Shown: positions 376 to 15,340 of the stretch, piece by piece | Layout: every line of letters begins with the position of its first letter | Numbering within the stretch: the first letter of the stretch is position 1 | Origin: Pirellula sp. | GTDB taxonomy: Bacteria; Planctomycetota; Planctomycetia; Pirellulales; Lacipirellulaceae | Reading direction: 5' to 3' | Assembly: GCA_013822725.1 (NCBI GenBank) | Contig: PNKX01000006.1 | Coordinates: 39,549-63,548, forward strand | DNA length: 24,000 nucleotides | Notes under the pieces: generated by a model | Seen by the model: the letters and a program-made list of their open reading frames with translations, nothing else | Database searches by the model: none | What the model was told of the DNA's origin: nothing | Position numbers and translations under genes: made by a program

Positions 376-2361
376 CTACTCCCCGGCATCGAGCTCGCGA
401 AGTTCGCGGCGAAATCCGCCCGAAAGAATCGGAAACCGACACCAGGTTTTTGGGTCGAGATTCTTATCATCGACGTGGAACGACGGCGCGTATCGTTCCC
501 GCTTCCACTGGTTGCGGCACCACAGCTCAAAGAATCGCCGAATCCAGGTCACCAGCTGCGGCTTGGCATATTGTGGAAACTCCGCTGCGACGAACGCCAG
601 CACTTCGGCCGGCGAGCGCTTTTCGCCGATCGCTTGATGCTCGATGGCGTCGAGCAAATCGTACGGCATCAGGTCGGTTTCGTCGGTTTGCGACTCTTCG
701 GCGGGGCGAAGTTCCGCCGTCGGCTGGAGCGCGTTGACGACCGCTAGTTCAGGAATCGGGCCGATCCCCACGGGGCCTTGCACCTCCAGCCAACGAAGCC
801 AGCGCCGCAGGAACGCCTTATCGATGCCGGCGATCGGACTGATGCCGCCGCACGTATCGCCGTCCATCGTGGCGTAGCCGACAGCCGCCTCCGAGCGGTT
901 GCTCGTCGCCAGCAACAGAGCGTTGTTCACGTTGGCCAGCATCCACACCGACGGGCCTCGTGCGCGGGCCTGAATGTTCTGCAGCGTGACGTCGTCGGTA
1001 TTCCACTCGAGCGGCCGACCGAGCGCCGCTTCCACTTTCGAACGGTAACTGTGGCAGACGTCGTCGACGTCGAGCTCATAGTGCGTGGCCCCGATCGCCT
1101 GGGCGACCGTGGCTGCCGCTGCGCGCGTAGTCGCAGAACTTTGTCGCGTCGATTGATAGGCGGTCGTCAGCAACCGCGCCACAATCGCGGCGGCGTCAAT
1201 CTCTTCACAGATTTGACGTTTATCTAAACCAAGTAACGTCGCAAAACACTCAACCCCAAACTCCTCGACTCCCAACTTCACCATGATCGCTACCAGCGCC
1301 GTCACAGCCGCCGAATCGGCCCCGCCGCTAAGCGAGACGACAAATCCCTTGGCCCGGCTCTTGCGCAGATAGTCGAATAGCCCCAGCGCGATCGCGCGGG
1401 TGAACTCCTCTTCCTGCTCCGACTCCGCCGCCTCCCACGCGGCCGCCATATTCGCACGCACCTCCGGCGTCGCGTTGCGGAACGAGAAATCAACGGCGAC
1501 CGCTGGCTCGGCGTTCAATTCGACCGTCGGCTGAAAGCTCGCCGATTGCGCACGTCGCATCCGAATCGCGTCGACGTCGACGACGGCGTCGATCACGCTC
1601 ACCGGCGCCATCGTCAACCGCGGCCCGCTGGCAAGCAACTCGCCGCTGGCGGCGATGAGCGTATGCCCGTCGTAGATGACGCGCCCCGCTTCGTTGCCCG
1701 CCAAGTTGCTGTAAACGTAGCCGACGCCGAACGTGCGCGACGACTCGACCACCAACTGCCGCCGCGTGGCGTGCTTGCCAAAGGCAAAGTGGCTCGCGCT
1801 CGGATTGAGAATCAAATCAACGCCGCGCCGCATCAAATGATCGGCGGGGCGATCAGCGACCCAGGCGTCTTCACAAATTTCAAAGCCGATGCGAACGCCG
1901 TCGACTTCGAACAACATCTCGCCCACGCGGCACTCCTCGCCCGCGAGACGAACCGTCACCGATTGCCCCGCCGGCCACGGCTTGAACCACCGCGGCTCGT
2001 AGTGCAACCCGTCGCCGGCAAGTCGCTGCTTCGCGGCAACGCCGACCAAGCGGCCATCGACCACTAACGCGGAGCCATTGAACAAGGCCCCGCCGTAGAG
2101 CAACGGCAAGCCCATCGACACGGCCATCCCGCGAGTCTCACCCAGCAGCTCGCTCAACACCTGCTCGGCCATCCCCACGACAGCGTGCGAAAAGAAGGCG
2201 TCCTCGCAGCCGTAGCCAGTAATGCACAGCTCCGGCAAGCAGAGGATCTGCACTTCACGCTCTCTAGCGGCGGCAATCGCGCGACGAATGTTGTCGGCAT
2301 TGCCATCCCAATCGAGCGGCGTCTGATTGAGCGCCGCGGCGGCGACGCGCAGCAGTTTCAT
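376..2361 (-). CDS. nadE: Glutamine-dependent NAD+ synthetase (N-terminal CN-hydrolase/glutaminase domain plus C-terminal NAD synthetase domain)
   Basis: 661 aa ORF. N-terminal nitrilase-like region (LCLPELCITGY..., FEICEDAW). C-terminal PP-loop SLSGGADSAAV typical of NadE. The ATG overlaps the prs stop (ATGA). Confidence 0.93.
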   Translation of the reverse strand: MKLLRVAAAALNQTPLDWDGNADNIRRAIAAAREREVQILCLPELCITGYGCEDAFFSHAVVGMAEQVLSELLGETRGMAVSMGLPLLYGGALFNGSALVVDGRLVGVAAKQRLAGDGLHYEPRWFKPWPAGQSVTVRLAGEECRVGEMLFEVDGVRIGFEICEDAWVADRPADHLMRRGVDLILNPSASHFAFGKHATRRQLVVESSRTFGVGYVYSNLAGNEAGRVIYDGHTLIAASGELLASGPRLTMAPVSVIDAVVDVDAIRMRRAQSASFQPTVELNAEPAVAVDFSFRNATPEVRANMAAAWEAAESEQEEEFTRAIALGLFDYLRKSRAKGFVVSLSGGADSAAVTALVAIMVKLGVEEFGVECFATLLGLDKRQICEEIDAAAIVARLLTTAYQSTRQSSATTRAAAATVAQAIGATHYELDVDDVCHSYRSKVEAALGRPLEWNTDDVTLQNIQARARGPSVWMLANVNNALLLATSNRSEAAVGYATMDGDTCGGISPIAGIDKAFLRRWLRWLEVQGPVGIGPIPELAVVNALQPTAELRPAEESQTDETDLMPYDLLDAIEHQAIGEKRSPAEVLAFVAAEFPQYAKPQLVTWIRRFFELWCRNQWKRERYAPSFHVDDKNLDPKTWCRFPILSGGFRRELRELDAGE

Positions 2362-3293
2362 CGTTCGCCTCCATCGACATGCCGCAGCGGCGTTGCGAAT
2401 TCGCCGGCAATCGAACGCACCGTGAGCAACGCCGGATTCGCCCGCGCGAGCTCAGCCGCCCGCGGATGGCTGTTCGTGGCGATAACGTGCGTAATGACGC
2501 CGCTGCTACGAATCTCCGCCAGTGCATCGCCCGAAAACAGACCATGCGTCGTCACGCAGGCCACGCCGCTCGCGCCGGCGCGATGGTACGCCTCCGCCGC
2601 GATCAGCAGCGACCGCCCCGAACGAATCATGTCGTCGTAGATGACGACTTGCCGCCCCGCCACGTCGGCGTTCATCGCGGTGACAACCGGCTGGCCGTCG
2701 GCAAGCCGCTTCTTAAACACAAAACTCGCCGGCACGCCGATCTCGTTCGCCAGCGATTCGACCCACTTCGCACGGCCGGCGTCGGTGCTCGCCAGGACAA
2801 AGCGTTCGCCGCCGAGCTGCTTGATCGCCGCCGTCACCGTCGGCTTGCCGTACACATGCACCGCCCGCAGGCCGTTCTCGAAGTAATACTGAATCCCCTC
2901 GGCATGAAGATCCAACAACAGCAAACGATTCCCCGCACACGCCCGCGGAATCGAAGACAGCAGCTGGGCCCGCGTCTTGGCCTTCACGATCTCGCCGGGG
3001 CGGACGGCGCGATCCATCGTCGCGTAGCCGTAGTAAGGCGCCACGATCGTCAGCGAACGCGCCCCCTCATGCACGAGCCCCGACGCCAGGTCGAACAGTT
3101 CCAACGTCTCCGTTTCCGAAATCGTCCCGCCGACCAGCACGACGTTCCGGTCGCACACGTCCGACGCGATGCGATGATAGAACTCGCCATCGTCGAACGT
3201 CTTCCGTTCGATGGCGCCAAGCTCGCCGCCCGTGATCGCCGCCAACTCGTCACGGAAGTATTCGTAGCTGGCCGTTGCGAAGAGTTGCATCAT
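2358..3293 (-). CDS. prs: Ribose-phosphate pyrophosphokinase (PRPP synthetase) family protein of the type found in NAD-salvage clusters
   Basis: 311 aa. Two PRTase-type halves with a PRPP-binding loop ([14 protein letters not shown]). ATGA overlaps at both ends, with the pncB stop and the nadE start. Confidence 0.8.
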
Positions 3294-4786
3294 CCCTCCG
3301 GAGTTGCGGCAGCCTGCGGATCGCGGGCCGCTTGAATCATGGCGTCGCGCCGCTCATGCAGGCCGACGTCGAGCCCCACCGGGTACTCATGCGGATTCAT
3401 GAACCGGCGAATCGTCGGGTGGAGCCGCTGCAGTTCGCCGCGAGCCCGCTCGCGAACGACTTCCAGCGGCTCGCTCTCCCGGACGACCCGGCCGCCCCGA
3501 ATCACTGGCTTCAGCAAATCTCGCGCATCAACCGTCGCCGGCATCGACTTCCGCCGCGTCGGATCCTTCGCATCGACGACGATCTGCCGCGGATCGACGC
3601 CGCCAAGTTCGTCGTAAATCATATCGCCAAGCATGCCGTCCGCCGTTTCGTAACGCCGCACCTGCAGAATCCCCGGAATGCTCGTCTTCACCGCCTGCTC
3701 CGAAAGCTTCAGCCGCGGCGCCCACTCGCCCTGTTCGTTCTGCACGGCGCCAAGCTTGTACACGCCGCCGAGCGCCGGTTGATCGTACGCGGTCGCCAGC
3801 TTGGTGCCGACGCCCCAGACCGAAATCTTCGCCCCTTGCGCCTTCAAGTTCTCGATGATCCGCTCGTCGAGATCGTTCGACGCCAAGATCTGCGCGTTGG
3901 GAAATCCCCCCGCATCGAGAATCTTGCGGGCTTCAATGCTCAAATAAGCGAGGTCGCCCGAATCGAGCCGCACGCCCACGAGCTCGTGCCCTTCGCTTCG
4001 CAGCTTGGCGCCGATTTCAACCGCACGCCGCACGCCGTCGAGCGTGTCGTAGGTATCAACGAGAAACACGCAGTTGTTCGGCATGGCCTCCGCGTAGCTG
4101 GCGAACGCCTCCGCCTCGGTATCGAACGACATCACCCAGCTGTGGGCGTGCGTCCCCTTCACCGGAATGCCGTACAACTTGCCGGCCAGCACGTTCGAGG
4201 TCGCCGCGCAGCCGCCGATGTAGGCGGCGCGACTGGCCGACAGTCCGCCATCGATTCCCTGCGCCCGCCGCAGCCCGAACTCGACCACCGGATCGCCCGC
4301 CGCCGCTTGGCAAACCCGCGCCGCCTTCGTGGCGATCAGCGTTTGGAAGTTAACGATGTTCAGCAGCGCCGTCTCCAGCAGCTGGCACTGCAAGATCGGC
4401 CCCCTCACGCGCAGCAGCGGCTCTTGCCCGAACGCGACCGTTCCCTCAGGCATCGCGTCGACGTCGCACGCCAAACGGAGCTCGGCCAGGTAGTCGTAAA
4501 ACGCCTGCTCGAACAACGGCTGGCCATCGTTGCCGACCAAGGTGGCGAGATAGGCAATGTCGTCCGGCTCAAAGCGAAACGCCGAGAGATAGTCGATCGC
4601 CGGCGCCAACCCCGCGGCAATGGCATACCCCCCCTGAAACGGCGGCTTCCGAAAGAACAAATGAAACACCGCCGGCTGGTCCGCCCGCCCCTGCTTCCAA
4701 TACCCGTAGGCCATGGTGAGCTGATAGAGGTCGGTCAGCAGGGCTAACGAGGGTCGCGGGAGGTTTTGAATGGTAGCGTCGCTCAT
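3290..4786 (-). CDS. pncB: Nicotinate phosphoribosyltransferase
   Basis: 498 aa. N-terminal [15 protein letters not shown] signature of NAPRTases and a central GTHAHSWV motif. First gene of the coupled pncB-prs-nadE set. Confidence 0.88.
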
Positions 4787-4809
4787 GATAGTGTTTTTAT
4801 AACACTATC
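4787..4809. promoter_or_regulatory. Perfect 9+9 bp palindrome GATAGTGTT-TTTAT-AACACTATC abutting the pncB start codon; NrtR-type operator candidate, with an embedded TATAAA on the minus strand
   Basis: Read directly: arms at 4787-4795 and 4801-4809 are exact reverse complements. The core GTGT-N7-ACAC is shared with the site at 263-281. Confidence 0.45.
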
Positions 4810-4814
4810 TATCG

Positions 4815-4846
4815 ACATGGCAAGAGCGATTTCTTGAGCCCCATGT
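4815..4846 (-). terminator. Interrupted hairpin between the rtcA stop and the pncB promoter region (ACATGG-CAAGA-GCGATT-TCTTG-AGCC-CCATGT)
   Basis: A 6-bp outer stem and a 5-bp inner stem are visible. There is no U-tract on the minus strand, so terminator function is uncertain. Confidence 0.2.
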
Positions 4847-4904
4847 TAGCCGTTTGCTGCACTGCGAACGCCGATCGTCCCCTACAGCCGCTGCCGCTAT
4901 TTAC

Positions 4905-5945
4905 CTATCTACCAACCGTGACGCGACAACACTCCCCCTCGCGTTCGACTTCGATCGGAATCTCAAGAAAGCTGCGCAACAGATCGACATGCGTCTGCGA
5001 ATGCCGGGTGAGCGGCTGCGTCGCGAAAGAACCGCCCCGGCCCGTCTGCCAGGCGGCGATTCCCAGCGGCAACAGCAGTTGATCGGCCAAGTACGGACCA
5101 ACCGGGACGCCTGCCGCCAGATAGCTGCGGGCCTCCTTCACCGCCTCGCCGGCGACACGCTCCGCCGTAGCGCCAAGGCGGCCGAAGCCGGTGAAGACCT
5201 CGCGCACATGCTCCGAGTGGATCTCGATAAGGAAGACGTTTCCCGGTCCGGCCGACTCAATGCTCGCGTCGACATGAAACATCGAGTCGGGCCAGCTGAG
5301 CTTTTCAGCGGCTGCTTCGACTTCACGTCGACCGATCCTCGACGAAAGGTTCGCCACCAGAGCAGTAGCGGAACGCTGGAGGATCTCGCCTCGTTCCAGC
5401 AGATCGAAACCCGCCAGCTGCGGCGTCGGTTCGATTGCCACGCTGAAGCGCCCGCCGCCGGCTGGATAGAATCCATGCCGCTCCAGCCCAGCCGAAATGC
5501 GCGGGCCCATGCGGTTGATTAGCGGAAAGAAGGCTTGGGCGAGAAAGTCGTACGGCGGCGCCCAGGGGTTGTGCGTGCCGCCTTCGAGGACGATCTCCGA
5601 TGGACCGTCGGCAATCAACAGCGCCGGCAGAATCGTTTGCAGCACCAGCGTTGCGCTGCCGGCGGTGCCGACCGAGAAGGTGTGCTGACCCGGACGGATA
5701 GCCGTTGGGCGAAAGGAGAGCGTTTGCGAGCCAATCTCGTCTTCCTCGACTTCCGCGGCGCCGATTTCGACGGCGGCGCGCACCGCCGTGAGATGCTGCC
5801 GCATGAGGCCGGGCTTGTCGCGTCCGGCGCGGATGTTTTCTAGACGAACCGGGCGGCCGGTTACGAGTGCCAGCGCGAGCGACGAGCGGAGAATCTGTCC
5901 GCCGCCCTCGCCTTGCGAGCCATCGATGGTGAAGTTATTTGACAC
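4905..5945 (-). CDS. rtcA: RNA 3'-terminal phosphate cyclase
   Basis: 346 aa. The N-terminus IDGSQGEGGGQILRSSLALALVTGRPVRLENIRAGRDKPGL is the RtcA signature. GTG start at 5945, sharing one nt with the upstream TAG (TAGTG). Confidence 0.92.
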   Translation of the reverse strand: MSNNFTIDGSQGEGGGQILRSSLALALVTGRPVRLENIRAGRDKPGLMRQHLTAVRAAVEIGAAEVEEDEIGSQTLSFRPTAIRPGQHTFSVGTAGSATLVLQTILPALLIADGPSEIVLEGGTHNPWAPPYDFLAQAFFPLINRMGPRISAGLERHGFYPAGGGRFSVAIEPTPQLAGFDLLERGEILQRSATALVANLSSRIGRREVEAAAEKLSWPDSMFHVDASIESAGPGNVFLIEIHSEHVREVFTGFGRLGATAERVAGEAVKEARSYLAAGVPVGPYLADQLLLPLGIAAWQTGRGGSFATQPLTRHSQTHVDLLRSFLEIPIEVEREGECCRVTVGR

Positions 5946-6541
5946 TAGCGGTTTTCTTCCATCATATGGATCGCTTCGTTAATCCCGATTAGCGAACCGG
6001 ACAATTGCTGGAAGCATTCGTTGCAGACGATCGAGAAACCCACCACGCTCGTATGGCGAGGGACTTTCTCGAGGTTACGCTTTCCATCCGAAGATAGCCA
6101 ATAACGAAAGGCGTCTCCCTTCGGATCTACATCATGCAGATCGATAACTACCGAGTCGATGGGCTGAGCCGCCTCATCGTTAAAGATACCAATCTCAATT
6201 AACAATTGCCGGCAGGTTCTCCACAGTGCGTCTAAATCGTGTCCCCATACAATCCGTTCGTTAAATGTACGACCAAGATAGACGTGAGTGCTCGCGATCA
6301 ACTCTTTGGTAATAAGCTCGATCGCATGGCGATGAAGAAAACCAACTGGCCACATTGCCTGGTCGCCGTGATATGAGATCTCTCTTCGGTTCTCAGTGAT
6401 GATCATGGCCGCCTTGTTGTAGGCATTAGCCATGAACTCGGGCGTGTGTTCTCGATACCAATCAGGTATAAAATTGTCGCTTCGTCCCCCGCCTTTGCTC
6501 GTAAACAAAGCATCATTGCGATCTTCACGTTTCTCAGTCAT
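5945..6541 (-). CDS. Orphan helical protein (about 198 aa), possibly HEPN-like, inserted between rtcB and rtcA
   Basis: The ORF fills the whole rtcB-rtcA gap. The track ORF runs to 6568, but the ATG at 6541 (MTEKRED...) overlaps the rtcB stop as ATGACTGA. It contains the Rx4H strings REISYH and RIVWGH(DLDALW). GC is about 49 percent in the first 100 nt counted from 5945, clearly below the flanks. No family was recognised with certainty. Confidence 0.7.
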   Translation of the reverse strand: MTEKREDRNDALFTSKGGGRSDNFIPDWYREHTPEFMANAYNKAAMIITENRREISYHGDQAMWPVGFLHRHAIELITKELIASTHVYLGRTFNERIVWGHDLDALWRTCRQLLIEIGIFNDEAAQPIDSVVIDLHDVDPKGDAFRYWLSSDGKRNLEKVPRHTSVVGFSIVCNECFQQLSGSLIGINEAIHMMEENR

Positions 6542-8051
6542 CCGCCTGATCTCCATCCTTGATGACAAACTTCGCCTTCAACCGCGCCACTTCGCTTGCT
6601 AGTCCCGCGCTCTTTACCGACCGCAGCACTTCGTCGAAATCCTTATACGCGGCAGGCGCCTCGTCGATCGGGTACGCACGGCAATTGGTGAGGATGTCGG
6701 CTTCGTCGAACGAGCGGTCGACTTCCTTTTGATCGAGCGCTCGTTTGGCCGCCTTCCGCCCCAACTGTCGGCCCGCGCCGTGGTTGACGCTGTAGCAACT
6801 GACCGAGGCGCCGGCGTCGGCGGCCATCACGACCGAACCTGCCTGTGGATTGCCGGGGAGCAAAATCGGGTGGCCCGTTTCCGCGAACGGCGTATCGCGC
6901 AGCGCGTGGTGGCCGGCCGGGAAGGCCCGCGTCGCCCCCTTACGGTGTACCCAGGCGATGTTGTTGTTCACCACTTCCTTGCGGGCGATGTTGTGGCTGA
7001 TGAAATAGACCAACTGGCCAGTGACTCCCGGCAGCACCTCTTGGAACGCTTCCAGCACGAGCGCATTGATCAACAGGTGATTGACGGTCGCGAAGTTAGC
7101 GCCGAGCGACATGTCGTCGATATACGCGTCGGCCTCGGGAGTGCCGAGCGGAGCGTAAACGAGCTCGCGGTCGTTGCCGGGAAGCGGGATGTCCCACTGG
7201 GCGAACTTGCCTTGCAAGGCTTTGAATTGGCCCGACGCTAACTGGTGCCCGATGCCGCGCGAACCGCAGTGCGATAGGAACGCCACGCCGCCGTCAACGA
7301 GTCCGAAGACCCGCGCCGCTTCGCGAGCACGGTCGTTGGCTTCGACATGCACCACTTCGCATTCGCCAAAATGGTTGCCGCCGCCGTAGGAACCGAGCTG
7401 CGTCATTTTCAAGTCGAAGCGGTGCATCTGCGGCAGGAGTTGCTCCAGTCGCAGCGCCAGGGCGCCGGTGGAATCGTCGTGGCCCACGTGCGTGGAATCT
7501 TCGCAGCGCGCAGCCCACTCGGGCGGGATGCCGAGTTCTTCGCAAACGCCGCGCGAGGCTCCTTCCACGAGAACGCGCTTGCCGAGGGCTTCGCCAACAT
7601 GGCGCGACTTCGGCGCATTGCGCTGGCCGCGGCCAGCGCCGGTCGGGGTTCGTTCGCAGATCGCGTTGATGAGCGCGCGCCGGGTCGGCCGATCGAGGAT
7701 CGCGTCGGCCGGTAGGCTCGTTTGCAGCAGGCTCATCGAGCATTTGATGTCGACGCCGACCGGGCCGGGGTAAATGTGCGTCGGCGAAACCATGACGCAG
7801 CCGACTGGCGCCCCGTAGCCGCAATGGGCGTCTGGGTTCAGCACCAGATCGGTGACGCCGGGCGCTAGCCGCGAGTTGATCGCCTGCTGCAGGCAGAGGT
7901 CGTCGAAAGTGGCGCGGATCGCCTCAGTGCCGATGACGGTGATCGGCTTTTGCTTCCCGCCGGTTGGCAAGATGGCGGTCGCTTCGCCGTCGGCGATCAT
8001 CTGGAACTTGCCCGACGCAGCGTTCACTTCACTTTTAATGTCAATGCTCAT
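6534..8051 (-). CDS. rtcB: RNA-splicing ligase RtcB (3'-phosphate/5'-hydroxyl RNA ligase), long 505-aa form
   Basis: Motifs LVLNPDAHCGYGAPVG, GGGNHFGE, SHCGSRGIGH and NHGAGR are metal- and GTP-binding signatures of RtcB. Confidence 0.95.
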   Translation of the reverse strand: MSIDIKSEVNAASGKFQMIADGEATAILPTGGKQKPITVIGTEAIRATFDDLCLQQAINSRLAPGVTDLVLNPDAHCGYGAPVGCVMVSPTHIYPGPVGVDIKCSMSLLQTSLPADAILDRPTRRALINAICERTPTGAGRGQRNAPKSRHVGEALGKRVLVEGASRGVCEELGIPPEWAARCEDSTHVGHDDSTGALALRLEQLLPQMHRFDLKMTQLGSYGGGNHFGECEVVHVEANDRAREAARVFGLVDGGVAFLSHCGSRGIGHQLASGQFKALQGKFAQWDIPLPGNDRELVYAPLGTPEADAYIDDMSLGANFATVNHLLINALVLEAFQEVLPGVTGQLVYFISHNIARKEVVNNNIAWVHRKGATRAFPAGHHALRDTPFAETGHPILLPGNPQAGSVVMAADAGASVSCYSVNHGAGRQLGRKAAKRALDQKEVDRSFDEADILTNCRAYPIDEAPAAYKDFDEVLRSVKSAGLASEVARLKAKFVIKDGDQADD

Positions 8052-8074
8052 AGTTCAGTTCACAAGAGTAAAGG

Positions 8075-8212
8075 GCGGCGACAAGGAGTCGAAGAAACAA
8101 GCCTGACGATCTAACCCGTTGATCTACGGCGTCTCGCGACAAGTCACGCGACGCCGGCGGGGCTCGAACCCGCTCCCTTCAGGTTCCATGTAGTTCCTTC
8201 CGCATTCGCCGC
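8075..8212 (-). ncRNA. Y-RNA-like module 5 (YrlA-like, with a permuted tRNA-like domain)
   Basis: Minus strand: closing stem GCGGCGA/UCGCCGC. The 5' strand GAAUGCGGAAGGAACUACAUGG pairs with the 3' strand GUUUCUUCGACUCCUUGUCGCC (GAAGGAAC with GUUUCUUC, using one G-U). T-arm GCGGG-UUCGAGC-CCCGC. Loop-closed acceptor-like stem GGCGUC...GACGCC. D-arm-like GUAGAUCAACGGGUUAGAUCG. The module ends about 24 nt before the rtcB ATG. Confidence 0.75.
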
Positions 8213-8234
8213 TGGCTGAGGGTGTTTAGTAAGT

Positions 8235-8381
8235 TTCGAATAAGAATGACGACAAAGGACGAAGAAACAGTCTGATGCTCTAACCAACTGAGCTACGGCC
8301 GCCGCGTGAGCGACTGCACCGGTGGGACTCGAACCCACGCCCGTCAGGGTGATGTAGTTCCTTCTGCATTCGCCATTCGAA
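8235..8381 (-). ncRNA. Y-RNA-like module 4 (YrlA-like, with a permuted tRNA-like domain)
   Basis: Closing stem UUCGAAU/AUUCGAA. 5' strand GGCGAAUGCAGAAGGAACUACAU, 3' strand GUUUCUUCGUCCUUUGUCGUCAUUC. T-arm GUGGG-UUCGAGU-CCCAC. Loop-closed acceptor stem. Canonical D-arm GUAGCUCAGUUGGUUAGAGC. Confidence 0.8.
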
Positions 8382-8410: not shown

Positions 8411-8582
8411 CAAAAGCGAAAGGCATGACGACAAAATTGATGAAACGCATACGCGCTCTGCCAGACTGAGCTACGGCCCCGTTGTTGTACCAAACGAGTG
8501 GAGCCGGTGGGATTCGAACCCACGACCTCGGGTTCCTAAGACCATGTAGTTCCATCCGCATTCGTCACGTTTTTCGCCTTTG
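8411..8582 (-). ncRNA. Y-RNA-like module 3 (YrlA-like, with a permuted tRNA-like domain)
   Basis: Long closing stem CAAAGGCGAAA...UUUCGCUUUUG. 5' strand GACGAAUGCGGAUGGAACUACAUGG, 3' strand UUUUGUCGUCAUG. T-arm GUGGG-UUCGAAU-CCCAC. Acceptor stem CGGCUCC/GGGGCCG closed by a 19-nt loop. D-arm GCUC-AGUCUGGCA-GAGC. Confidence 0.8.
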
Positions 8583-8605: not shown

Positions 8606-8716
8606 ATCTCTTGCGACAACAGGGGCGAGACGTCCCGGCCAGCTTCGTTGAAGCCGGTCGAGGCGGGATTCGAACCCGCTTGCGACCATGTAGTCTCGCT
8701 GGCATTCGGAAGAGAT
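8606..8716 (-). ncRNA. Y-RNA-like module 2 (T-arm only, no D-arm)
   Basis: Closing stem AUCUCUU/AAGAGAU. 5' strand CCGAAUGCCAGCGAGACUACAUGG. GCGAGAC pairs with GUCUCGC. 3' motif CUGUUGUCGC. T-arm GCGGG-UUCGAAU-CCCGC, followed by a short hairpin in place of the acceptor and D elements. Confidence 0.7.
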
Positions 8717-8900: not shown

Positions 8901-10478
8901 TTACAATCGCACCGCTTCGATCACGCGGACCCAGTGATCGCCGGCGAACTGGCCGCTCGCCACGTTGGCGAGCAACTCGAACACCTGATCGCTGAAGCCG
9001 CCGACGTTGATGATGTCGTCTCGCTCCTTGGCTTGCACCGTGCCTGACGGTTGAATGTCGATGCAGACCATTCGCGCCCGCGGATTGCGGGCTTTGAAGG
9101 CAGACCATTCATTCATCGTCGCGGTTCGGCCTCCGCCAAAACGACCGTAGCCGGGCGTATCGATCCACGACTCGTTATCCGAGACGAAGACCACCAAGTC
9201 GCCCACGGCGCGTCGCTGGTTGAGCGTTCGCAACGGGGCGCTGCAGTTCGTACCCGCAGGCGGCAACGACGAAAGCTTCTGGGCGTTCGTCATCACGCTG
9301 TTGCGCGGGTTCAGCCGAACGTTGACTGTTTGGTCGTTGAACGGCAGCACCTCCGCCTCCGGATTTTGTCGCAGCACCGCCGCCGCGACGAGCGCCGCCA
9401 CGTCGATGCAACGAACCGCAGTCGTCGCGCCGTGGCGATGGCCAGTGACAGGCGAGTGCATCGACCCCGACACGTCAGGGCAGATGAACGCCTTTCCCGC
9501 CACGCGGGGCACGTTCTTCAACGATAGTTCCATCGCGTCTTGCAGCGACTCGCGCACCGCCGTCGGCACGCGAGCGTCGGCGTTCGCGTATGCCGTCATC
9601 AACTGGTACGGGAAGACTCGCGCCTTCTCCACCAGCCGAGGATCGCGCAGCCGGTTGGCAATGAGCGTCGTCATTTCAGCATCCTCGAACACTTCGTGCC
9701 GCAGGAACGTGTTGAGATTCATCCGCGTCATTTGCCAAGGCGCCGTCCGCGCAATCTGCCGCCAATCTTTCTTCGTCAACGGCAACGCCGTCAACAGTTG
9801 GAACGGCACGTCGGGCACGGCGACCTTTCCCGGATTGGTGTTGCGCTTGAACTTTTCGTACTGCTTCACCAATTCCGGCAAGGCCTCGGCGTTGTGCTGA
9901 CGACCGATCAAGTAGCCGTACAACGCTTCCCGGGTTGGGTTCGCCGGCTTCGGGTGGACCAGTCGCAGCACGTCGGCCAGCGACGGAGCGTTGCCGACCG
10001 AACCAGTGAAGACCTGCGCGTCGCTCCGCGATTCAAGCCATTGAACGATTAACCGCTTCGGCAGCGTGCCCAAGCTCTTGCGACCCACTACGCCCGATCG
10101 CATGATTTGCACGAAGTTGCGGAGCATCTTCGGCGAGTCGATGACGCGATCGAAGGCCTCGGCTAGCAACCCCGGCGAGCGAACCGACAACACCGCCAAG
10201 AGCAGCGCCGGCATGTCTTTTATGTGGCCACGCTCACGAGCGTAGATGGCGGTACGAGCGATAAACTCCGGCTCAACGGCGTTGCACAGCATGAGAACCG
10301 CTTCGAGCTGCTCCTCTGCGGAGGCGTAAAAGGCCGCGCCCAGGCAACCAGTCGCCGCGTATTGGGCGAGGGCTTGCTTGTCGCTGCGCTGGTAGGCGAG
10401 GCCGCCCGCTTCGTTAACGGCGTCGGCCTTCGGGGTCAGGACGCCGCGGAGTGACTGGAAAAGTGATTTGTTCGCCAT
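8901..10478 (-). CDS. rsr: Ro60 ortholog (TROVE domain plus vWA domain) ribonucleoprotein Rsr
   Basis: 525 aa. N-terminal TROVE-like HEAT-repeat region. C-terminal vWA domain with the MIDAS motif DVSGSM. Located between the sigma54 promoter and the Y-RNA-like array, as in the described rsr-yrl-rtcBA operons. Confidence 0.88.
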   Translation of the reverse strand: MANKSLFQSLRGVLTPKADAVNEAGGLAYQRSDKQALAQYAATGCLGAAFYASAEEQLEAVLMLCNAVEPEFIARTAIYARERGHIKDMPALLLAVLSVRSPGLLAEAFDRVIDSPKMLRNFVQIMRSGVVGRKSLGTLPKRLIVQWLESRSDAQVFTGSVGNAPSLADVLRLVHPKPANPTREALYGYLIGRQHNAEALPELVKQYEKFKRNTNPGKVAVPDVPFQLLTALPLTKKDWRQIARTAPWQMTRMNLNTFLRHEVFEDAEMTTLIANRLRDPRLVEKARVFPYQLMTAYANADARVPTAVRESLQDAMELSLKNVPRVAGKAFICPDVSGSMHSPVTGHRHGATTAVRCIDVAALVAAAVLRQNPEAEVLPFNDQTVNVRLNPRNSVMTNAQKLSSLPPAGTNCSAPLRTLNQRRAVGDLVVFVSDNESWIDTPGYGRFGGGRTATMNEWSAFKARNPRARMVCIDIQPSGTVQAKERDDIINVGGFSDQVFELLANVASGQFAGDHWVRVIEAVRL

Positions 10479-10538: not shown

Positions 10539-10554
10539 TGCAGGGAGCGTGCCA
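10539..10554 (-). promoter_or_regulatory. Sigma54 (-24/-12) promoter for the rsr / Y-RNA / rtcB / orphan / rtcA operon
   Basis: The minus strand reads TGGCAC-GCTCC-CTGCA with exact GG-N10-GC spacing. It lies about 60 nt upstream of the rsr ATG (10478) and is divergent from rtcR, which encodes a sigma54 activator. Confidence 0.75.
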
Positions 10555-10724: not shown

Positions 10725-12305
<1,581 letters not shown>

Positions 12306-13219: not shown

Positions 13220-15340
13220 CTAGCGCGGCGGGCGCCCAAGTGACGGGGATTGTTGTCGCAGTGGGTGGTCGTCCCACCAGCGCTGTACCGATTCGACCTT
13301 AGGCGGGTTAAGCTCGAGCATGCGCTCATACTCCCGCTGAGCATCACCAAACCGCCCGGCGACGAGCTGGCTTTCGATGAGCAACTGCCGGGCGCCGAAG
13401 CTATCGGGGAAGCGCTCAACCGCCTCTATGCAGGTTGCGGCGCAATCGCTCCAGCGGCCCAACTGCGCGTAGCACCGGGCCAACTCGTACCAATACCGCG
13501 CGATCCAGGGGTTGAGCTTGCGGGCGCGATCCCACCGTTCGGCGGCCGCCGACCATTGGCCAGCGCTGGCCAGCATCGACGCCGTGGCCGCCAGCGTGGT
13601 TTCTCGTCGCGGCTGGCGTTGGAGCACGTCTTCGAGATGTCGCAGGGCGGGCGAGAAGTCTCGGCTTCGCTCCAGCGCAAATGCCAGAGACTCGCGCGCG
13701 GGGGCGTCGGAGGGATCGTGCTCGACGGCCTGCCGCAGCAAGCCAATCGTCTGCGGTAGCAAGCTTCGATCAGCCACTTTCGGATGCCGGGACATGGCCA
13801 TCATGAGCGCAATGGCAATATTGCGAGACTGGTCCGGATCATTGGCGGCCGGCGCGGAACTGGGGTCTTGGGTTAGCGAAAACGCATCGAATGCGATCAG
13901 CGGCGACCACGTCGGCGACGGAACAGTCGTCCGGCGTGGCGGCGGCGCGGTCGGCGACCGCGGGATCCGGTGGTCGGTCGCCGCCGCGTGTTGAATCCGA
14001 GTGCTCGCGCGGGGCATGTGGCAAGCGATGCACGAGTCGTCGGCCTGCTGGGCGCGGCGCTCGTCCTGCGGCAACTGGCAATCCGCCTCGCCATGACAGT
14101 CGAGACAGCGGCGGCGATAGTACTCCGCCTTGGCAGCTTCCTCGGGCAATTGATGCGGGTCGTGGCACGAAATGCAGCCAAGCTTTCCCATGCTTCCCGT
14201 GTAGCAGCCGCTCTGGTGCATTTGCTCCACATGGCCGACGAAGCGATCGGCTGGCTCGCCGGCGGGCGCGTCGCTGGCCGCCGGCGTCGAGTCGGTCGAT
14301 GCCGCCGGGAGGAAAACAGCTTCGACGGCCGACCAGGGCAACCCCGGCCGAAAATCCTCGCGCTGGCGGCCGCGCGTTTCGACGCGCACCAGGCCGCCGA
14401 GGTGGCACTGCTGACAGACGGACTCGCGCAACGGCGGCTCCAGGTGCGCAGGATTGACGATAGTGAAGTCGGGTCCGGCGGCGACGGCTTCGTCGCCGCC
14501 GCCGTTTTCACGCGCGGCGACGTGCAGCTCGCCCGGGCCGTGACAGCGCTGGCAGCCAATCGCGTGGCCGGCAAAGATCGGCGGTTCGTACTGGTTGGCC
14601 GTCCCCTCGACGTGCAGTGCGCGATTGGCATGACAAAACAGGCACTCTGCAACCACCGGACGATTGAAATGCGAGTCATTCACCTCGTATCCGGGCGATA
14701 GGTCCCAGCCGTGATCGGCATACCACGTCATCGGCGACATAAATAAATGTCCGTCGCGCTCGATGAGATAGCTCCGGCCGGTGCGTCCGGAGCCGACGGC
14801 GTAGACGGCTTCGAACTCGGTGACCAACGCTTCCTTTCCGGTTGGCGAGAGGCGCGTCTCGCGATGGAACTGGCGGTCGCCGTCGCGGCGCACCTGGTAG
14901 GCATGGCCATCGAGCGTCAGCGGAAGGCGTCCTTCGGCCGTAAAGTTCTCGATAATCTCGGCGACGCCAACCGGGCTGAGGGAACGACCCATCGGGTGCT
15001 TGGCATAGGATGCGGCGATGTCGCTGTGGCACTCGGCGCACGAGGCGTCGCTGACGTAGGCGACGTCAGGGTGAACATTGCGATAAGGGGACGCTTGGAC
15101 GAGCGATGACCAGTCGCCGGGTTTGGCGATGGTTGCCGTGCGCGCAACCTGTGGGTTCGATAGGGTGGATTCACCCTGCCGGGGCGGATTCGTCCGCATC
15201 CAAATTAAATAGGCGAAGCCGCACGCGAACAAGATTCCCAGGCCGATTGACGCGATCCGGACCGGAATGCGACGTTTCCCCGGATTCGCGGCGGGCGGCA
15301 TGGAATGCGACATGAAACCATTGTTTCCACCGCGATGCAT
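13220..15340 (-). CDS. Membrane-anchored multiheme cytochrome c (7 CXXCH) fused to C-terminal TPR repeats
   Basis: 706 aa. N-terminal hydrophobic anchor IASIGLGILFACGFAYLIW. Heme motifs CAECH, CLFCH, CQRCH, CQQCH, CISCH, CLDCH and CIACH. The C-terminal 200 aa have TPR-like periodicity (WYELARCYAQLGRW...). The start could be a downstream ATG (15313 or 15301). Confidence 0.85.
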   Translation of the reverse strand: MHRGGNNGFMSHSMPPAANPGKRRIPVRIASIGLGILFACGFAYLIWMRTNPPRQGESTLSNPQVARTATIAKPGDWSSLVQASPYRNVHPDVAYVSDASCAECHSDIAASYAKHPMGRSLSPVGVAEIIENFTAEGRLPLTLDGHAYQVRRDGDRQFHRETRLSPTGKEALVTEFEAVYAVGSGRTGRSYLIERDGHLFMSPMTWYADHGWDLSPGYEVNDSHFNRPVVAECLFCHANRALHVEGTANQYEPPIFAGHAIGCQRCHGPGELHVAARENGGGDEAVAAGPDFTIVNPAHLEPPLRESVCQQCHLGGLVRVETRGRQREDFRPGLPWSAVEAVFLPAASTDSTPAASDAPAGEPADRFVGHVEQMHQSGCYTGSMGKLGCISCHDPHQLPEEAAKAEYYRRRCLDCHGEADCQLPQDERRAQQADDSCIACHMPRASTRIQHAAATDHRIPRSPTAPPPRRTTVPSPTWSPLIAFDAFSLTQDPSSAPAANDPDQSRNIAIALMMAMSRHPKVADRSLLPQTIGLLRQAVEHDPSDAPARESLAFALERSRDFSPALRHLEDVLQRQPRRETTLAATASMLASAGQWSAAAERWDRARKLNPWIARYWYELARCYAQLGRWSDCAATCIEAVERFPDSFGARQLLIESQLVAGRFGDAQREYERMLELNPPKVESVQRWWDDHPLRQQSPSLGRPPR

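Follow-up and report, generated by a model that had tools for sequence, protein, structure and literature searches.

A low-GC gene of an unnamed, probably HEPN-related family between rtcB and rtcA of a Pirellula RNA-repair operon

The RNA-repair operon of a Pirellula sp., contained in the 24,000-nt stretch of DNA that was analysed as a whole (the window; all coordinates are window positions), has an additional open reading frame (ORF) wedged between rtcB, which encodes an RNA ligase, and rtcA, which encodes an RNA cyclase. This ORF is a genuine, horizontally acquired and conserved gene. New here are the large, HEPN-like and so-far-unnamed protein family to which it belongs, the recurrent residence of that family between rtcB and rtcA, and direct evidence that the cassette has recently been exchanged; HEPN-superfamily proteins and nuclease-versus-repair pairs are kinds of thing already known. 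The best explanation, that the gene is a resident of the operon whose product would be made together with the repair enzymes and directed at RNA, carries as a whole a probability of roughly 0.5. The features at the centre of the argument are these:

5945..6541, minus strand: the inserted gene, encoding a 198-aa all-helical protein with a remote HEPN-T-like signature (R71, H72, E75, K79, H101, D139, R146, Y147)
6534..8051, minus strand: rtcB, RNA 3'-phosphate/2',3'-cyclic phosphate ligase (PF01139, E 1e-101)
4905..5945, minus strand: rtcA, RNA 3'-phosphate cyclase (PF01137, E 3e-74; PF05189), with a GTG start that overlaps the ORF stop

The inserted gene and its recent exchange

At its maximal extent the ORF runs from 5945 to 6568 on the minus strand (207 aa from a TTG). 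Translation could also begin at either of two ATGs in the same frame: the one at 6556 gives 203 aa and is the NCBI call (P0001), and the one at 6541 gives 198 aa and is preferred by an independent gene call on a sister contig (L034). The ORF fills the whole rtcB-rtcA gap, overlapping both genes and leaving no spare DNA. The first-pass annotation of this DNA had described an ORF of 198-207 codons in this position, and the listing of ORFs agrees. The two overlaps that it reported can also be read directly from the sequence: ATG 6541 overlaps the rtcB stop by 8 nt (GGATGACTGA / GCGGATGACTGAGAAA), and the ORF stop TAG and the rtcA start GTG have a G in common (CGCTAGTGTCA / AACCGCTAGTGTCAAAT). The ATG lies within the final codons of rtcB, made from the last Asp codons, GAT GAC (GAC GAT in an ORF-less relative, L035). 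The C-terminus of RtcB (KDGDQADD and stop) is native and is kept in L035; the first five residues of RtcA differ from those of L035 (MSNNF versus MAECPI). The low GC content of the ORF relative to its neighbours, likewise remarked on before, is confirmed: 48.7% overall and 54.8% at third codon positions (GC3), against 61-65% and 73-81%, respectively, in the flanking genes.

That the gene was inserted later into an existing rtcBA pair, as the first-pass annotation proposed, is borne out by four contigs with RtcB 86-91% identical to that of the window. In the two with RtcB 88% and 86% identical, rtcB and rtcA are 43 and 27 nt apart and there is no ORF between them; the ORF is also absent after rtcB in the relatives at 91% and 89%. 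The sister contig L034, from another metagenome (RtcB 95% identical in amino acid sequence), shares the rtcR/rsr/rtcB/ORF/rtcA layout, and its junctions are identical. Its divergence from the window is distributed as follows (dS, synonymous divergence):

rtcB: 157 of 1518 nt differ; dS 0.43
rsr: dS 0.43
rtcR: dS 0.91
ORF: 8 of 597 nt differ; dS 0.033, omega 0.26
5887..6580: low-divergence tract, consisting of the ORF and of extensions by ~40 nt into the 3' end of rtcB and by ~58 nt into the 5' end of rtcA

The contrast in divergence between ORF and rtcB is highly significant (Fisher p = 4e-15). Within the tract there are 8 mismatches in the ORF, half of them non-synonymous, and 0 in the included flank ends; outside it there is one mismatch per 3-20 nt. 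Because synonymous sites cannot be constrained 13-fold, the cassette must have been exchanged long after the lineages split, and the tract records a recent transfer that took place through recombination within the flanks. The cassette moved between lineages ~10% apart in DNA, with crossovers in the last ~40 nt of rtcB and the first ~60 nt of rtcA. No terminal direct or inverted repeats and no target duplications were found at the ORF ends. An integron cassette, a transposon and a homing gene were considered and rejected for want of end repeats, of spare DNA and of a match to an endonuclease family. Divergence is also uneven among the upstream genes (dS 0.91 for rtcR versus 0.43 for both rsr and rtcB), which points to additional mosaicism through recombination in the rtcR-rsr-rtcB region.

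An unnamed family and its probable relation to HEPN domains

A HMMER scan of 1.84 billion cluster representatives yields at least 1,101 family members at E<=1e-3 (representatives of clusters at 50% identity) and 52 at E<=1e-10; with few exceptions they are ~200 aa long and can be aligned over their full length. The description of the ORF as an orphan does not survive this count. Other searches retrieve less: a word-indexed homologue search returns the query alone and its profile version 10 proteins, and a metagenome scan with the single protein finds one distant locus. The query has no match in Pfam or NCBIfam (E<=1 to 10), in agreement with the earlier statement that features of archease and PrfH are missing, and none among the PADLOC-DB 2.0 defence models (E<=10), PHROGs or PDB sequences; the family profile finds nothing relevant in the last two. 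All copies on plasmids are annotated 'hypothetical protein'. Conservation in an alignment of 154 sequences (counts in brackets, numbering of the 198-aa protein) is concentrated in these columns:

near-invariant: R71 (153), E75 (154), K79 (153), H101 (152)
near-invariant, continued: W107 (150), D139 (154), R146 (153), Y147 (151)
further conserved: F145 (141), P65 (143), D60 (133), H72 (131)

The query retains every one of them. The members form a large family whose invariant residues suggest an active or ligand-binding site.

Both models of structure are confident and all-helical (AlphaFold2; pLDDT 95.3 and pTM 0.90 for the query, 96.1 and 0.90 for a 23%-identical family member). PF05168, the classical HEPN domain, is the only Pfam family matched repeatedly: by 6 of 60 members at E<=1 and by the family consensus, in consistent register, with E-values of 1e-3 to 4e-3 and scores of 18-20 bits (consensus 17.9, P0045 19.6, P0049 17.6 bits). 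When the two models are compared with the PDB by Foldseek, the listed matches with a root-mean-square deviation (rmsd) <8 A are all HEPN-superfamily chains, leaving aside 1ylm (YutE):

HEPN-superfamily matches: 7ae6, 7ae8, 6m6u (HepT), 1jog (HI0074), 1wwp, 3o10 (sacsin)

Among these, 1jog is described as a nucleotidyltransferase substrate-binding domain. Foldseek against the viral structure set BFVD retrieves uncharacterised proteins only.

The alignment of motifs points the same way. For comparison, the HEPN-T sequences 1ufb (TT1696), 1wol, 1o3u (TM0613) and 3o10 (sacsin) were taken from the PDB. In permissive or global hhalign alignments E75, K79, H101, D139 and R146-Y147 of the family pair with E39, K43, H56, D83 and R90-Y91 of 1ufb. 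The order E-x3-K, G-H, D-x6-R-Y and the D-to-R spacing are common to the two (P 0.003-0.02, which is weak support), and within the family E75-x3-K79, (G)H101 and D139-x6-R146-Y147 are 98-100% conserved. Likeness to the classical HEPN-T proteins would comprise a predicted all-helical structure, an E-x3-K on a long helix, a His that precedes the following helix and, ahead of the last one, a D-x6-R-Y. The HEPN-T group often lacks the motif His, has a conserved His elsewhere and clusters with restriction-modification (R-M) operons (Anantharaman et al. 2013, PMC3710099). All three traits apply to the ORF family. Compared with classical HEPN-T domains, its members are longer by ~80 residues and have both an additional pair of helices and an N-terminal extension with a conserved F13; they score below every significance threshold, and no nucleotidyltransferase partner of theirs was found.

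Several results weigh against the HEPN part of the argument. The gathering threshold of PF05168 (22 bits) is not reached by any family match, and the query itself has none. Foldseek against the PDB gives nothing significant, all E-values being >0.5. Since default hhalign against the four solved HEPN-T sequences produced a spurious local match and the family hidden Markov model scores ~0 bits on them, the HEPN link rests on weaker, convergent signals. Moreover, the canonical Rx4-6H RNase motif is absent from the 154 sequences. The two Rx4H strings to which the first-pass annotation drew attention, REISYH (53-58) and RIVWGH (96-101), are both in the query, but as a family RNase motif they are rejected by the column counts: position 96 is Arg in 17/154 and position 58 His in 60/154. 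The His of RIVWGH is the near-invariant H101. No His is conserved at +4 to +6 after R146, where the residues are D/T/N, K/R and D/K. The segments RHAIELITK and GHDLDALW, previously cited as resembling an HEPN layout, are indeed the most conserved helices. HEPN is the sole signal to recur in the profile and structure searches; on the other side, none of the HEPN matches is significant. On balance the family probably belongs to the classical HEPN domain (HEPN-T, PF05168 type) as a diverged branch, and what it resembles appears to be that type rather than the canonical HEPN RNase. In naming the HEPN superfamily the first-pass annotation was, in a loose sense, right.

Residence at the rtcB-rtcA junction and elsewhere

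The insertion in the window is not unique. A second family member (P0007, 28-30% identical to the query) lies at the rtcB-rtcA junction of two Logan contigs, L056 and L057, whose RtcA is 67% identical to that of the window, and a third (P0012, 44% identical to P0007) is found between what appear to be remains of the same two genes on L059 and L060:

L056/L057: rtcB 3' end (encoding RFVIKDSSEADD and stop), 330-aa gene (GC 0.51), family gene (GC 0.48), 141-nt spacer, rtcA (GC 0.61)
L059/L060: RtcB C-terminal remnant (LATEVANSQARFVIKDASEADE and stop), 358-aa gene with zinc-ribbon tail, family gene, possible rtcA N-terminal remnant (ITIDG)

The RtcB remnant of L059 (~6807-6881) consists of 22-25 residues and keeps the position of the stop (tblastn E 7e-4); the possible RtcA remnant is at ~8620-8650. 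The L059/L060 locus is beside ribonucleotide reductase, with no rtc operon nearby: either the cassette took pieces of its flanks along when it moved, or it stayed in place while the operon decayed. The companions of the family gene in the slot vary (none, the 330-aa gene, the 358-aa gene), and the family gene is the constant. The 330-aa and 358-aa proteins could not be classified: they have no PDB match, and plasmid homologues carry the annotation 'hypothetical'. The 330-aa companion (L056 62-1054) shares E-x-N-S-[LI]-K-H-G-x-R with a 31%-identical homologue on Deinococcus radiophilus pRadio3 (L058 5977-6981), which sits behind a DNA methyltransferase gene.

In a neighbour-joining tree the query, P0002, P0003, P0004 and P0006 are sister to P0007, P0012 and P0008. 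The members at rtc junctions fall on both sub-branches of this query clade, interspersed with members in other contexts (P0002, for example, adjoins glnA). Three of the six clade members with visible context are, or were, between rtcB and rtcA. A partnership with RNA repair is therefore plausible for the query clade, as judged from gene order. The same upstream gene, with the C-terminus ...HLETLYAS... (L032 1-309, L055 2-1123), precedes P0003 and P0006. A DEAD-box RNA helicase gene (L055 2068-2985) is downstream of P0006 on the opposite strand, and L032 carries an IS200-like transposase fragment.

Elsewhere the family has the profile of a mobilome conflict or addiction gene. Its 31 loci in species-representative genomes are spread over Enterobacterales, Rhizobiales, Planctomycetota, Acidobacteriota, Chloroflexota, Verrucomicrobiota, Bacillota and one archaeon, and the GC content of the gene often departs from its surroundings, up or down. 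A tyrosine recombinase is immediately downstream in 7 of the 31; other neighbours include genes for serine recombinases, a UvrD-type helicase, AbiJ-NTD, Schlafen-AlbA and transposases. In two loci (L002, L009) the family gene is the last gene of a type I R-M operon, and PADLOC candidates among the neighbours of homologues are type I R-M, PDC-S32 and mad5. The family consensus is found on 224 plasmids, 172 of them conjugative, mostly of E. coli, Klebsiella and Salmonella, and on 16 IMG/VR contigs; INPHARED phage genomes have no homologue. P0005, a 35%-identical member, lies on two contigs (JGI 3300071358, 3300071325) 35 nt ahead of a gene for a 773-aa nSTAND3 NTPase, a pairing typical of conflict systems.

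A cassette in which a gene of 104-116 aa, the family gene and a site-specific integrase gene follow one another is widespread on conjugative IncF plasmids, in the replication/partition region near repE, par and vapBC. The position presumably recalls that of ccdAB-resD of plasmid F, and is taken as a lead only. Examples of the cassette are:

E. coli pJJ1887-5, 4581-6422 (L036; the integrase is split in two pieces)
K. pneumoniae INF133 plasmid 5, 4627-6451 (L037)
further loci: L021, L019, L022, L001

A small co-oriented upstream gene is present in about one third of homologous loci; the window has rtcB upstream instead. In Enterobacterales alone it encodes a conserved protein, of 116 aa; in other taxa the protein is a different one, of 104 aa. 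No universally conserved partner gene was found across the homologous loci. A nucleotidyltransferase (MNT) partner is missing from the window, from the 10 upstream or adjacent small genes of homologous loci and from the top 25 Pfam families of 150 neighbours.

Proposed role, rival readings and comparable systems

On the reading preferred here, the ORF is a promoterless cassette. Because the ORF has neither a promoter nor a terminator of its own (no signal resembling either was seen at its borders with rtcB and rtcA), it would be transcribed from the RtcR/sigma-54 promoter along with rsr, the Y RNAs, rtcB and rtcA. Its translation would be coupled to that of rtcB, and translation of rtcA would be coupled in turn to that of the ORF, so that the protein would be made only when RtcR senses damaged RNA. 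The protein itself would most likely be an RNA-directed effector, either an HEPN-type RNase or a binder of RNA or nucleotides. HEPN RNases cleave without metal and leave 2',3'-cyclic phosphate and 5'-OH ends, the kind of ends that RtcB seals and RtcA makes. Since HEPN-type ends are substrates and products of RtcB and RtcA, the ORF protein, co-produced with the repair enzymes, would share their RNA pool; RtcB and RtcA would deal with whatever it produces or targets, and would so take the place of the small partner that is encoded upstream of the family gene on plasmids. The elements of the operon on which this depends are:

10725..12305, plus strand, divergent: rtcR, with CARF-like RtcR domain (PF06956, E 2e-79) and sigma-54 AAA+ activator domain (PF00158, E 2e-49)
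10539..10554, minus strand: sigma-54-type -24/-12 element TGGCACGCTCCCTGCA, 60 nt upstream of the rsr ATG
8901..10478, minus strand: rsr (Ro60/TROVE orthologue), first gene of the operon (PF25045, PF05731)
8607-8712, minus strand: weak fourth YrlA-like element (RF02553)
8072-8212, 8243-8376 and 8422-8568, minus strand: three tandem YrlA-like (bacterial Y RNA) elements (Rfam RF02553)

The sigma-54-type element has the form TGGCAC-N5-CTGCA, and its position is kept in L034 though the remaining rtcR-rsr spacer is only 46-63% identical; the consensus alone is not significant in the window (9 matches versus 10.8 expected). The YrlA-like elements between rsr and rtcB score 58-67 bits, slightly below the gathering score of 69 (E 1e-12 to 4e-15). 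A plain tRNA model matches 8149-8302 in this region, where ARAGORN finds no tRNA.

A functional link between the ORF and RNA repair by RtcB and RtcA stands at even odds or slightly below. Three roles would fit equally well: a cutter whose action RtcB reverses, an amplifier of the RtcR signal, and a binder that directs repair. RNase activity of the protein is a tentative proposition; it is a guess from the superfamily, and classical HEPN-T domains also serve as nucleotide- or substrate-binding modules. A stronger version of the proposal makes the HEPN-like clade a resident, exchangeable third component of the RtcR operon: a cutter made together with ligase and cyclase on sensing of cyclic-phosphate RNA, acting either as a self-amplifying switch to abortive infection or dormancy, with RtcB as antidote, or in cut-and-reseal editing of tRNA, tmRNA or rRNA, and spread as an advantageous gene by recombination at the ends of rtcB and rtcA. 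This is speculative, and we consider it unlikely.

Several observations count against the reading preferred here. Approximately 55 of ~60 family loci have no RNA-repair gene within 5-8 kb, and outside the query clade none of ~50 has RtcB, RtcA, Ro or RtcR within that distance. The first-pass annotation had looked to homologues recurring beside rtcB, rsr or rtcA; for most of the family this fails, and it holds for three lineages, all in the query clade, that are placed at an rtcB-rtcA junction or at what is left of one. Selection on the ORF copy is barely measurable with 8 substitutions (omega 0.26), and the rtcB-rtcA slot could be merely a permissive recombination hotspot.

This last thought leads to the foremost rival: the gene is ordinary mobile cargo, an addiction or defence gene with an unrelated target of its own, that entered an rtcB-rtcA hotspot where the arms are conserved and insertion is tolerated, with no link to RNA repair. 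Such cargo would be expected to behave as most of the family does, lying near integrases, resolvases, R-M and plasmid maintenance genes without rtc genes; the inconstant companions in the slot, the ends of the recombination footprint in the flanks and the persistence of the L059 cassette beside a mere remnant of rtcB all speak for it. What it leaves poorly accounted for is the use of the same slot, among many sites, by three lineages whose family genes are only 28-44% identical and are the only constant component, and the seamless fit of the ORF to the translation signals of both neighbours. We judge it rather unlikely.

The protein might instead be a non-catalytic accessory factor, binding GTP/ATP or an RNA end, in the manner of the HEPN-type domain of nucleotidyltransferases or that of sacsin, and aiding or regulating guanylylation of RtcB or adenylylation of RtcA as archease aids RtcB. 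The classical HEPN-T type is a substrate-binding domain of nucleotidyltransferases, and it is this type that the conserved E-x3-K, H and R-Y match; translational coupling to both enzymes would also suit such a factor. The family as a whole, however, has no general nucleotidyltransferase link and no MNT among its upstream small genes. The gene is missing from the four contigs with RtcB 86-91% identical, two of which have an intact rtcB-rtcA pair, and a distribution so patchy and mobile is what one would sooner expect of a conflict gene. The accessory role is improbable. Still less can be said for a homing-type selfish gene that cuts the empty rtcB-rtcA junction and is copied in by repair. It would explain the near-identical copies, the 13-fold lower synonymous divergence of the insert relative to its flanks, the short co-converted flanks and the identical junctions in two assemblies. 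Yet there is no Pfam match to a homing-endonuclease family, end repeats and target duplications are missing, relatives occupy many unrelated sites and ordinary homologous recombination accounts for the footprint, all of which makes homing very improbable. A chance ORF or assembly artefact, for which the 8 differences between two copies (half of them non-synonymous) might be adduced, is for practical purposes refuted by the same junctions in two independent assemblies (the window and L034), the 1,101 homologues, the conserved columns that the query keeps in full and a confident structure prediction.

Returning to the proposed operon-resident effector, the nearest comparison for the operon itself is the Salmonella rsr-yrlBA-rtcBA operon, which is controlled by RtcR and sigma-54 (PMC7790460). 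The window has the same order, with divergent rtcR, a sigma-54 element, Ro, Y-RNA-like elements, rtcB and rtcA; unlike Salmonella it has an extra gene between rtcB and rtcA and 3-4 Y-RNA-like elements rather than 2. RtcR-like CARF regulators are also predicted beside HEPN-containing CoCoNuT systems (PMC11090510), which are alike in combining an RtcR-type CARF/sigma-54 regulator with an HEPN-type protein. CoCoNuTs are multi-domain, McrBC-type systems with no RtcB or RtcA, whereas the window has a single small protein inside a canonical repair operon. Archease and PrfH, too, are small proteins encoded beside rtcB, but the ORF protein has no sequence relation to them.

HEPN RNase toxins with the canonical Rx4-6H (HepT/DUF86 with MntA, Csm6/Csx1, RnlA, PrrC, Abi) provide the best of the structural neighbours at low rmsd (7ae6/7ae8 and 6m6u), have an invariant Arg at the equivalent position and are, like the ORF family, single-gene or small modules in defence islands, plasmids and R-M loci. 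The ORF family differs in lacking the His 4-6 residues after R146, in having no known activity and in its small upstream gene, whose sequence is not conserved across taxa. In the known pairs of nuclease and repair system, PrrC versus phage T4 Pnkp/Rnl1 and colicin E3 versus RtcB2-PrfH (PMC9223846, PMC13166195), RNA is cut and sealed at the same ends, and the logic proposed here would be the same. In those pairs the parties are opposed and separately transcribed; here one operon and one sensor would serve both, and the nuclease is putative.

The purpose of the bacterial Rtc system is debated; for the most part its natural substrates, and the nucleases that set off RtcR, are either not known or come from outside it (prophages and colicins, for example). 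If the reading is right, a nuclease-like gene in the rtcB-rtcA slot would be a testable candidate for an in-operon source or modulator of the RtcR damage signal and an example of a repair enzyme as antidote to a toxin-like protein. Whether or not that reading is right, the unnamed family (at least 1,100 clusters at 50% identity) is a large one that extends to IncF plasmids of E. coli and Klebsiella. No description of the family between rtcB and rtcA was found in the searchable literature, whose coverage leaves out the RNA-repair neighbourhood survey of Burroughs and Aravind 2016, and the accessions of family proteins were not found mentioned in papers.

The surroundings of the operon add a few minor observations. 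Directly downstream of rtcA is an NAD-related string of genes (376-4786, minus strand) with overlapping stops and starts; in L035 a pirin gene and an isochorismatase-family gene take its place. The string consists of:

3290-4786, minus strand: NAPRTase-like gene
2358-3293, minus strand: ribose-phosphate pyrophosphokinase-like gene
376-2361, minus strand: glutamine-dependent NAD synthase

Beyond rtcR, and unrelated to the ORF, 13220-15340 (minus strand) encodes a 706-aa protein with multihaem cytochrome c motifs and C-terminal TPR repeats.

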